The notes under the pieces were generated by a model. That model saw only the letters and a program-made list of their open reading frames with translations, was not told the DNA's origin and searched no databases. 64,000 bases of DNA from Octopus sinensis (lineage: Eukaryota), in NCBI RefSeq assembly GCF_006345805.1, contig NC_043022.1, positions 8,928,001 to 8,992,000 of the forward strand, in the 5' to 3' direction. The position numbers and the translations under genes are program-made. Position 1 is the first letter of the stretch. Every line of letters starts with the position of its first letter. Below are positions 5,620 through 60,075 of this stretch, piece by piece.

Positions 5620-5930
5620 CCAGTATGAATGCTAGAAGTCACCAATGACAGTCATGCAATCTCTGAAGAATTGACAATGCAATCAGCTTATAAGATTTTC
5701 TTGATATAACTGATATTTTTTTATTCTTAATGAAATGTGCATAAGATTATGTAACTAAATATTTTATGAAAGACCTCTCCAGTATGAATACTAATGATTA
5801 TTAATGAGTATTAAGCAATCTCTGAAGATTTGACAATGTAATCAGCTTATGAGATTTTTGTTATATAACTGATATTTTTTATTCTGTAAGATTATAAGAC
5901 TAAATATTTTGTCAACAGATTCTTATGTTT
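5620..5930. repeat. Diverged ~160-bp tandem duplication
   Basis: ccagtatgaat...gcaatctctgaaga..ttgacaatg.aatcagcttat..ataactgatattttt occurs twice, 160 bp apart. Confidence 0.75.
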
Positions 5931-51849: not shown

Positions 51850-53685
<1,836 letters not shown>

Positions 53686-57431: not shown

Positions 57432-57833
57432 TGGCTGCGTGGTTAGTAGCTTGCTAACCAACCACATGGTTCCAGGTTCAGTCCCACTGCGTGGCATCTT
57501 GGGCAAGTGTCTTCTGCTATAGCCCCGGGCCGACCAATGCCTTGTGAGTGGATTTGGTAGATGGAAACTGAAAGAAGCCTGTCGTATATATGTATATATA
57601 TATAAGTGTGTGTGTTTGTGTGTCTGTGTTTGTCCCCCTAGCATTGCTTGACAACCGATGCTGGTGTGTTTACGTCCCCGTCACTTAGCGGTTCGGCAAA
57701 AGAGACCGATAGAATAAGTACTGAGCTTACAAAGAATAAGTCCCGGGGTCGATTTGCTCGACTAAAGGCGGTGCTCTAGCATGGCCGCAGTCAAATGACT
57801 GAAACAAGTAAAAGAGTAAAAGAGAGTAAAGAG
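57432..57833 (+). mobile_element. SINE family A1
   Basis: Near-consensus copy. Confidence 0.9.
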
Positions 57834-57849
57834 TATTTATATATCTCTA

Positions 57850-58357
57850 TATATAAACTATTAAGGTGACTATTCGCAATTTAGAACCAATAGGCAACAA
57901 GTACAGTTATCACTAAAGTGATAGAGGGTGCTAGTAAGCACCAGCACTGCTAGAAATAGGAGTCAAAACAACCTTAACCATGTGAGAGAATTTTTCTAAT
58001 GGCTGACAAGGGAGACAGGCTCCCTCCCTAGGACAAGCGAGATGGAGTCATATCACCACTGATTTCAGATTTAATCAATTTTCATCAGTGACCCATTACT
58101 CCATTGCCGAGGGTTAAAGAATCTAAGTCACCTTGTCAGCCTTATATAGAACACCAGAGTAAACATTGACTGATTTCAAAAAATGGTGAAGTGAGAATTA
58201 TAAATTATTAAGGTGGTTATTTGCAATTTAGAACCAATAGAGAACAAGTATAGTTGTCACTAAAGTAACAGAGGATGATAGTAAGCACCAGCATTGCTTG
58301 AAATAAGAGTCAAAACAACTCTTAGCCATGTGAGAGCACTTTTCTAATGGCTGACAA
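57850..58357. repeat. Two diverged ~160-bp direct repeats (57850-58009, 58199-58357) flanking hammerhead 1
   Basis: tataaa.tattaaggtg..tatt.gcaatttagaaccaatag...tagtaagcaccagca...tttctaatggctgacaa occurs twice. Confidence 0.85.
58042..58096 (-). ncRNA. Type I hammerhead ribozyme motif (copy 1)
   Basis: AUGGGUCA CUGAUGA AAAUU-GAUUA-AAUCU GAA AUCA-GUGG-UGAU A/ UGACUCCAU: full core, stems I and III pair, stem II weak. Confidence 0.7.
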
Positions 58358-58365
58358 TATATATA

Positions 58366-58587
58366 TATTTCTTTATTACCCACAAGGGGCTAAACATAGA
58401 GAGGACAAACAAGGACAGACATATGGATTAAGTCGATTATATCGACCCCAGTGTTTAACTGGTACTTTATTTATCGACCCCGAAAGGATGAGAAGCAAAG
58501 TCAACCTCGGCGGAATTTGAACTCAGAACGTAACGACAGATGAAATACCGCTAAGCATTTCACCCGGTGTGCTAACGTTTCTGCCAG
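58366..58587 (-). mobile_element. SINE family B1 in a (TA)n site
   Basis: Full body flanked by atatatat. Confidence 0.88.
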
Positions 58588-58914
58588 ATATATATATTGA
58601 TATTTTGCTTAGGCATAGTGCTACTAATAGCATGGTGTTAGAACTCTAAATACATATGCTTCAGAATGAAGTGTTAGTCAAGTATAGAGCAGTAATAAGA
58701 AATTGGGATAAGAAAGGAATAAACAATTACATTACAAGCTTCATTAGTTTACAGCTGTTTGGGCTGTAAGGTGCAATGCATTCATAGTTGGATGCTTGAG
58801 TATTACTCTATAGCTTCATCAAAGCTCCATCTCCAGGAGGTGCTTCATAATTGTTCATTCCTTTGTGATTCTAATCTCTTATGTATGTGTGTGTGTGTGT
58901 TCTGGTTAACATAC

Positions 58915-58945
58915 CTGGCACCTTAGACCACTCGGCCATTCTGAC
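58915..58945 (-). pseudogene. tRNA-Leu 5' fragment (through the D arm, contains A box)
   Basis: GTCAGAATGGCCGAGTGGTCTAAGGTGCCAG is 29/31 identical to the animal tRNA-Leu(CAA) 5' sequence as I recall it; no anticodon or T arm follows. Confidence 0.75.
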
Positions 58946-58952
58946 AAGCAAG

Positions 58953-59007
58953 ATGGAGTCATATCAGCACTGATTTCAGATTTAATCAATTTTCATCAGT
59001 GACCCAT
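58953..59007 (-). ncRNA. Type I hammerhead ribozyme motif (copy 2)
   Basis: Identical to copy 1 except loop III is GUGC; 911 bp away, same strand. Confidence 0.7.
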
Positions 59008-59289
59008 TACAGTGACCCGGGGGTTAAAGAATCTAAGTGTGTGTGCGTTAGTGTGTACATATTATTAACCACATATTCTTTATGTATTTGCTTTGTTTAT
59101 TTTCCAGTGGCTGCAATAGCATGGTGGGAGTACATACACTCTCAGAGCACCAGGTTTTAAAACACCTCAGAGTCTCGGGCACGTGAGGTAACTCACTTTC
59201 AATCCCGTTTGGGAGTGATGGACACTGGCATTTCATGTGGTTGGTAAACAAGCTACTTACCACACAGCCACTAGTATTTCATTTTAGTA

Positions 59290-60075
59290 TTTCATTTCTC
59301 TTTGTTGGTCTGGTGGAAGGGGCAGAGCCCATGACTTTTGTAAGCCCAATGAGACTGATGCTGAGAAAAGTCTGCTTTAGCTGTTTCAAACTGCCTACAG
59401 GGAAGTAAGTTTTGAGCAGTGAGAGAGTTCTTGATAGCTGACATTCTGTGAAGGAAGGACTGAGTGGAGTGGATAATGTAGGGCAGGATTTTGTTAAGTT
59501 AAGTTAAGTTAATTTTTTGGCTCAAAAAGCAAAGAGCAAGGCCATGTAGGGGGACATGGAGTTATGTACAGGGAGGGTGTTCATGCAAAGAGTTCAGGCC
59601 ATTTCTGGTCAAGAGAGACTTTGAACTGAGCGGTCGTCGGCATCTTCACTATCTCGTCTGACAGCTTATTCCATGGATCCGCAACCCGGATGGAGAAAGC
59701 TCCTCTCCTTCGATTGAGATGAAATCGTCGCAGATAGAGCTTTTCGGAGTGATCCCGCAGCCGACGCTCTGGAGCAGGAGTGAAGAACAGCTCTTTCGAG
59801 AGGTTACGCTTTCCGCTTATGATGTTGTGAGCAAGAATGAGATCACCATGTCGTCGTCGTTTTTCTAGAGAATAAAGGTTGAGCGAGAGTGAATGGGTGA
59901 GGAAAGGACAGGCGATTGAGGTAGGAGTGCCTGTATGGAGGTGGCATGAGATTAGTCAGTCAACTTTGTGGTGCAGTAGAAAAAATCAGTAAGAAAGCAC
60001 AGCTCGTGTGAACCAGAAGATTGAACATATCTTTGAGTGACATTATACCAGTCAATTAAGTGACCTCTCTCTGGC
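59290..60075 (-). mobile_element. Old CR1-group (Zenon-like) LINE remnant hosting a younger CR1
   Basis: LMPPPYRHSYLNRLSFPHPFT on one side and IHSTQSFLHRMSAIKNSLTA on the other side of the insert. Confidence 0.55.
59493..59885 (-). mobile_element. Young 5'-truncated CR1 LINE
   Basis: Uninterrupted frame 59883-59581: LNLYSLEKRRRHGDLILAHNIISG..RDHSEKLY..FSIRVADPWNKLSDEIV..FKVSLDQKW..*; short 3' UTR and (TTAAC)n tail. Confidence 0.9.

Follow-up and report, generated by a model that had tools for sequence, protein, structure and literature searches.

We hold with good confidence that the two hammerhead motifs on the minus strand of the window, a 64,000-nt stretch of the Octopus sinensis genome (NC_043022.1, positions 8,928,001 to 8,992,000), are decayed copies of a repeat of about 347 bp, here called family A, which was likely mobilised by the proteins of Penelope-like elements (PLEs). 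The upstream hammerhead is likely a local copy, and the 911-nt distance between the two is accidental in this reading. A wider reading is put forward tentatively, at somewhat less than an even chance. Family A would be a cephalopod retrozyme, for which a PLE reverse transcriptase (RT) was primed from nicked (TA)n DNA at a fixed site of a circle of about 347 nt, with the religated cut site read through, possibly for two or more turns, and with PLE-like inversions and one-sided tails left behind. Its genomic copies would then document a step missing so far from the retrozyme cycle. Family A would be one of many unannotated hammerhead families, with possibly tens of thousands of motifs.

The hammerhead pair and the interval between its members

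The window was scanned with a descriptor covering the core, helix I and helix III, with no demand on helix II, and exactly two matches were obtained, with CUGAUGA starting at 58999 and 58088 (Table 1). The two 55-mers differ in loop III only (GUGC upstream and GUGG downstream), both carry the cleavage triplet AUA, and their predicted cuts are spaced 911 nt apart. The first-pass annotation had described two co-oriented, core-intact type I hammerheads with the same positions, triplet, cuts and sole difference, and all of these were reproduced. Both copies have every core position (C3U4G5A6N7G8A9, G12A13A14, A15.1-U16.1, H17) and an open helix I. A stable helix II, usually closed by G10.1-C11.1, was absent from both; four of its five pairs form, around an A.C mismatch, and the hairpin was calculated at +4.6 kcal/mol, in agreement with the weak stem II noted earlier.

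A stricter descriptor, in which four consecutive helix II pairs were needed, rejected both window copies. The Rfam check proposed in the first-pass annotation gave no hammerhead in the window at the gathering threshold, and when six loci, divided equally between families A and B, were searched at E values up to 5, no hammerhead was present among the 150 of 159 matches listed. The output of repeat finders on this region was dominated by microsatellites. Judged by their relatives, the window hammerheads are real and not chance motifs, since they are members of a dispersed family in which all three helices are paired in the better-preserved copies.

Table 1. Features in and around the 911-nt interval (window coordinates)
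Feature	Position	Strand	Remarks
Upstream type I hammerhead	58953..59007	-	intact core; A.C mismatch in helix II; predicted cut 58962/58961; a competing hairpin is predicted
Downstream type I hammerhead	58042..58096	-	intact core; A.C mismatch in helix II; GUGG in loop III; predicted cut 58051/58050
Isolated 96-bp family A fragment	58943..59038	-	unit positions 230-326; after (CA)n tract; likely local copy of downstream element
Presumed tRNA-Leu-like repeat, 5' fragment, 49 nt	58898..58946	-	joined to family A fragment over 3-nt GTC overlap
Inverted piece of family B remnant	58848..58882	+	matches 58695-58729; read as its 5' inversion
Family B remnant	58590..58829	-	long helix II hammerhead, core broken; 3' end at (TA)n
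High-copy SINE-like repeat, 230 bp	58358..58587	-	set in (TA)n that separates family B from family A; many window matches; labelled SINE B1 in the first-pass annotation
Family A insertion, 506 bp, 1.45 units	57852..58357	-	stops at the family's fixed 3' end, 57852, before TA-rich tract
TATA-like box	58141..58149	-	upstream of downstream hammerhead; TATAAG well kept in alignment A1

As shown in Table 1, the 911-nt interval is a nest of four to five pieces, largely unrelated repeats. On the minus strand, it runs from 5' to 3' through the rest of the upstream family A fragment, the 49 nt that we take to be tRNA-Leu-like, (CA)n, the family B remnant with its inverted piece and the SINE-like repeat in (TA)n, and it closes with 307 nt from the start of the family A insertion. 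The core of the family B remnant is broken by U at C3 (58822) and C at G12 (58761), and inversions similar to that at 58848-58882 are present in several family B loci. A CCAAT-like motif (ATTGG) begins at 58238, and together with the TATA-like box it could represent a promoter. No ORF with RT and GIY-YIG domains, such as an autonomous PLE has between its pseudo-LTRs, was found between or beside the window hammerheads.

On this composition, the interval is read as an accidental nest produced by unrelated insertions and a likely local duplication, rather than as an element, since it is made up of a tRNA-like scrap, a broken family B remnant and a SINE, and its upstream hammerhead is only a 96-bp fragment. 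The 911-nt releasable unit proposed in the first-pass annotation was therefore not borne out: the real period is 347-348 bp, and the junction of the hammerhead fragment with the tRNA-like piece occurs in the window only, being absent from the other loci among 40 scored matches.

The two window copies are 95.7% identical over their common stretch, while the best other copy reaches 90% and the mean pair 81%. Moreover, they have seven departures from the column majority in common, whereas any of 51 other copies has at most five in common with either. Given this identity and these common departures, the upstream fragment is likely a local copy of the downstream element, made after decay began, and a recent local common origin would account for the near-identity of the pair. 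The copying route may have been either templated repair or chimeric retro-insertion.

Some further observations were made in the window. The family A fragment meets the apparent first base of the tRNA-Leu-like sequence in the window (58946-58898, minus strand) and at a second locus (L169:1503-1600), and ARAGORN called no tRNA in the window or at L169. By analogy, this join resembles the chimeras of RT template switching and may have arisen in that way. A 124-aa frame near the hammerheads (59581-59955, minus strand), without a Pfam match, resembles the C-terminus of a CR1-type LINE ORF. An exact 300-bp direct duplication (52395-52694 and 53310-53609) lies inside a long (TA)n region; it is possibly an assembly artefact or a recent duplication.

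Anatomy, conservation and folding of family A

When genome loci were mapped onto the window, family A was found to be a dispersed, non-coding repeat with a unit of 347-348 bp, and no ORF of at least 110 aa lies over the unit in the window. Used as a query against the genome, the downstream motif matched 207 first-look candidates, of which 40 were scored, at 84-92% identity; the neighbouring 208 bp, used likewise, matched 1262 first-look candidates. From 105 fetched loci, 74 non-redundant ones were retained, the window included. Since the loci were chosen by similarity to parts of the unit, the proportions among them are biased: a segment ends at unit position 149-165 in 49 of the 74 loci and enters a microsatellite in 40 of these 49, a head-to-head inverted piece is present in 19 of the 74, and more than one contiguous unit in 33 of the 74. 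The longest contiguous run is 797 bp. The 5' ends are variable, and several inverted pairs have their outer ends at 154-159 on one side and at 107-121 on the other. Of 79 rows, counted by eye, 40 continue beyond the 3' end point into the next unit at a constant junction, one has a deletion there and 38 leave the family. A fixed-end segment that reaches past the cut site, about 200 nt upstream, is present in 32 loci, and one that stops short of it in 18.

Family A thus shows the features of a retrozyme unit, which is non-coding, 150-400 nt long, with one hammerhead per unit and head-to-tail junctions. It also shows the insertion anatomy of the PLE type, namely a fixed 3' end, 5' truncation, an inverted 5' piece, partial tandems and microsatellite targets. 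The 1.45 units in the window hold one hammerhead, and two consecutive units with complete hammerheads were found at 1 of the 74 loci. This locus (L037:1200-1996, minus strand; G000:C8:93327889-93331089) is the only sampled copy of more than two units with two in-register, core-intact hammerheads, which are 345 bp apart. Separately, many 5' ends were seen near the base of an 11-bp helix enclosing the hammerhead domain (unit positions 341-17). This base is possibly an RT stall site, and the selection of loci may contribute to the pattern.

Contigs from three presumed RNA runs and one unclassified run were aligned to 57800-59150 at 85% likeness. In the presumed RNA runs, the summed depth was about 0-32 for family A bins versus 1e5-1e6 for the SINE, a comparison in which strand, ends and level are not resolvable and which counts neither for nor against expression of the family. 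Two low-depth contigs, which carry no information on strand or ends, closely match this locus (58094-58297 and 58877-59103). Among the 15 contig joints listed, with 444 more beyond them, none linked the two cut sites.

The conservation of the core was evaluated in loci not chosen via the hammerhead. Departures were found in 18 of 333 core cells, compared with 31 expected from base-matched non-CpG sites (Poisson P 0.008, a test that counts related copies as independent cells), which corresponds to 5.4% against 9.7% at the other non-CpG sites of the same loci. Helix II showed 16 departures where 25 were expected, and helices I and III showed no deficit relative to the background. In addition, the 15 lineage-level polymorphic non-CpG sites comprised two in loop II, 13 outside the ribozyme and none in the core or the helices. 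The core of family A therefore appears modestly conserved, and the hammerhead reading withstood the conservation check by which the first-pass annotation had proposed to challenge it. The collection of genome copies that it had also called for yielded the family, while the covariation part of that check turned out weak. RNAalifold returned no consensus structure from 33 copies; the named hammerhead structure was 86.8% paired, with 19 to 85 of 500 shuffles reaching the observed measures, and the one lineage-level pair change was not significant (Fisher P 0.47). The core departures and the polymorphic sites agree with selection having acted on source elements and with neutral decay once copies had been inserted, whereas the structure and covariation results speak against it.

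The core is intact in 27 of the 55 family A copies that span it, so the two intact cores of the window need neither selection nor function. Helix II reads AGAUU/AAUCU, with all five pairs and an A-U closure, in 31 of 55 copies. Both window copies carry a G-to-A change that is found in 4 of 65 others; it removes the only G-C pair of helix II, for which the hairpin would otherwise be at -1.8 kcal/mol. In loop III, 15 of 55 copies have the palindrome GCGC, and 18 of 55 have GTGC or GCAC, to which it would decay at CpG. Helix III alone was calculated at about 0 kcal/mol as a hairpin and at -7 to -18.5 kcal/mol as an intermolecular duplex, and its palindromic form suggests dimeric cleavage.

In terms of the cost of the hammerhead fold, the window copies ranked 21 and 25 of 30 core-intact copies; nearest-neighbour energies penalise every hammerhead fold, and the ranking alone is informative. 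When the upstream copy was folded within 87 nt of context, the minimum free energy structure was the CACUGAU/AUCAGUG hairpin, with a helix I probability of 0.02 that is not meaningful as an absolute value. This competing hairpin had been named in the first-pass annotation as a threat to activity, and its predicted dominance speaks, in silico, against the upstream ribozyme. Both window hammerheads are likely weak or dead according to these models, and would cleave poorly or not at all. As circles, 17 of 18 natural units folded more stably than their shuffles, with dinucleotide z scores of -0.2 to -5.9 for all 18.

Penelope-like elements and a proposed route of insertion

The genome contains 5029 GIY-YIG candidates, and ORFs of 780-781 aa with RVT_1 and GIY-YIG domains are present, indicating autonomous endonuclease-positive (EN+) PLEs in the same genome as family A. 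In seven of the eight PLE loci examined, a U3-A8 hammerhead variant is followed after about 100 nt by a fixed 3' end at which (TA)n begins, a layout as in family A. Termini resembling family A, or similarity beyond TA repeats, were found in none of 30 GIY-YIG loci and 10 extended loci from the 5029 candidates. Since no sampled PLE shares sequence with family A, the PLE partner is proposed from anatomy. Craig et al. (2021, PMC8557442) describe as hallmarks of PLEs that they form partial tandems and carry an inverted, 5'-truncated piece as well as a tail of 30-40 bp on one side, and the unequal outer ends of the family A inverted pairs recall this one-sided tail. Apart from this, a young PLE family was noticed at nine loci (L118-L125 and L127, e.g. 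G000:C1:207474000-207482000), with 98-99% identity among several copies, intact 781-aa RT and GIY-YIG ORFs and the U3-A8 variant, again some 100 nt ahead of a fixed 3' end at (TA)n.

The following route is proposed. Source tandem copies would be transcribed from an internal TATA-like promoter (box at 58149). Two hammerheads would pair via a 12-nt palindromic helix III and monomers of about 347 nt would be cut out, their ends held by an extended helix I, so that ligation to circles would be possible. Such circularisation would resemble that of retrozymes (PMC7229834), and the dimer-dependent metazoan hammerheads described in PMC4209133 have a helix III pattern as in family A. Next, microsatellite DNA of the (TA)n or (CA)n type would be nicked by a PLE endonuclease. 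Priming by the RT would always take place at a single position, some 200 nt on the 3' side of the cut, and from 0.2 to more than 2 units would be copied. The inserted window copies would subsequently have decayed neutrally.

Copies that cross the cut site require a circle, an uncut multimer or template jumping. A circular template is modestly favoured, with a probability approaching an even chance; the same family and the same PLE mobilisation with an uncleaved linear multimer as template, or with jumping between linear monomers, is a serious possibility at about one third. The instability of helix III in a monomer would leave many transcripts uncut, and one of nine Xenopus retrozyme dimers was reported to cleave in vitro (bioRxiv 10.64898/2026.07.22.740005), both of which speak for a linear template. 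However, the conservation of the core implies that cleavage mattered in the source lineages, and no long source arrays were found among the 74 loci, where no run exceeds the 797 bp given above. Family A might instead be the pseudo-LTR (pLTR) of an autonomous PLE outside the sample, with copies that are 5'-truncated partial tandems and not a free-standing retrozyme. PLE pLTRs bear type I hammerheads with a palindromic helix III, mostly as truncated singles or inverted pairs (PMC4209133), and the TATA-like and CCAAT-like motifs as well as the 3'-end anatomy agree with such an origin. We consider it unlikely, given that in the 40 rows where the unit continues it is followed by itself, with a constant junction, that the hammerhead-selected loci have no common extension into coding sequence, and that the sampled PLE loci do not match the unit.

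It is highly improbable that both window hammerheads cut a read-through transcript of the minus strand and so release a functional 911-nt RNA or circle. The two cores are intact and co-oriented, and the two helix III segments could form a heteroduplex, modelled at -11.1 kcal/mol, through which some cleavage of a chance transcript may occur. Nevertheless, the interval is a patchwork of unrelated repeats with a junction not found elsewhere among the loci scored, both copies carry the helix II lesion that few other copies have (4 of 65), the upstream copy is predicted to misfold, and with 27 of 55 core-spanning copies intact, two intact cores call for no selection. The window hammerheads are accordingly best regarded, as stated at the outset, as decayed family A copies at an accidental distance.

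Known systems and other hammerhead families

Family A adds to a known kind, that of the non-LTR retrozyme or non-autonomous PLE derivative, and it is best filed as a retrozyme-like, non-LTR, non-autonomous PLE derivative. The first-pass annotation had assigned the pair to retrozyme- or PLE-type hammerheads, which was right as to the kind and wrong as to the unit, the period being 347-348 bp and not 911 nt. Like the metazoan non-LTR retrozymes described by Cervera and de la Pena (2020, PMC7229834), family A has a non-coding unit that falls within the 170-400-nt range, with a GC content of 37-42%; each unit carries a single type I hammerhead, units are joined head to tail, and PLEs co-exist with them. 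In contrast to the retrozymes described there, most of its copies are dispersed, comprise 0.2-1.5 units, share a fixed 3' end and show inversions at the 5' side, and long tandem arrays are not the rule; its helix II has an A-U closing pair where G10.1-C11.1 is usual; and it is known here from genomic copies, whereas expression as linear and circular monomeric RNA belongs to the definition of a retrozyme. The main text of that paper does not mention cephalopods. No description of cephalopod hammerhead repeats was listed by the literature searches, and Repbase, Dfam or paper supplements may hold family A.

For the copying of animal retrozymes into DNA, there are so far proposals. In one of them, PLEs have been called strong candidates for this role (PMC7229834), which is supported by co-occurrence and homology in the study of Li, Clavereau and Pollet (2026, bioRxiv 10.64898/2026.07.22.740005), covering 31 vertebrates, 3 insects and 1 anthozoan. 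The retrozyme-PLE relation proposed in that study is the same as here, and dispersed monomers are common there too. Its argument rests on co-occurrence and pLTR homology, whereas ours rests on insertion anatomy, with no pLTR homology found in the loci sampled. By its definition of an active element, as two consecutive units that each hold a complete hammerhead, the window falls outside and L037 inside. With the pseudo-LTRs of EN+ PLEs (Cervera and de la Pena 2014, PMC4209133; PMC8557442), family A shares the palindromic helix III, partial tandems, the inverted 5'-truncated piece, the one-sided tail and microsatellite targets, as these are described there. It differs from them in having no attached RT or GIY-YIG ORF, and from minimal PLE hammerheads in its longer helix III (4 bp and a 4-nt loop) and more extended helix I. 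The PLE hypothesis becomes testable with family A, since a retrozyme-sized unit shows PLE insertion anatomy, the priming site can be mapped, and intact PLE ORFs are present in the genome. This specific hammerhead pair is ordinary repeat debris; the family holds some value.

Family B gave 1668 first-look candidates at about 80% identity, and its core is intact in 7 of 20 aligned copies. It is characterised by a long helix II, a palindromic helix III, 5' inversions and a 3' end at (TA)n. A further 19 distinct hammerhead motifs, belonging to neither family A nor family B, were found in 436 kb of fetched loci, 4 of them in PLE loci that had been selected for, compared with none or one in each of five shuffles. 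This suggests that there are many hammerhead families genome-wide. Hammerhead pairs are common in this genome, and Rfam missed the copies tested. A third hammerhead-like family was observed in the window at 5640-5885 (plus strand), with a core start at 5663 and part of another unit at 5815-5885; its search gave 79 candidates in the genome. Finally, unrelated hammerheads with a palindromic helix III were seen in the unselected flanks of ten loci (L011, L020, L027, L043, L047, L100, L120, L122, L126 and L127), several of them in inverted pairs.
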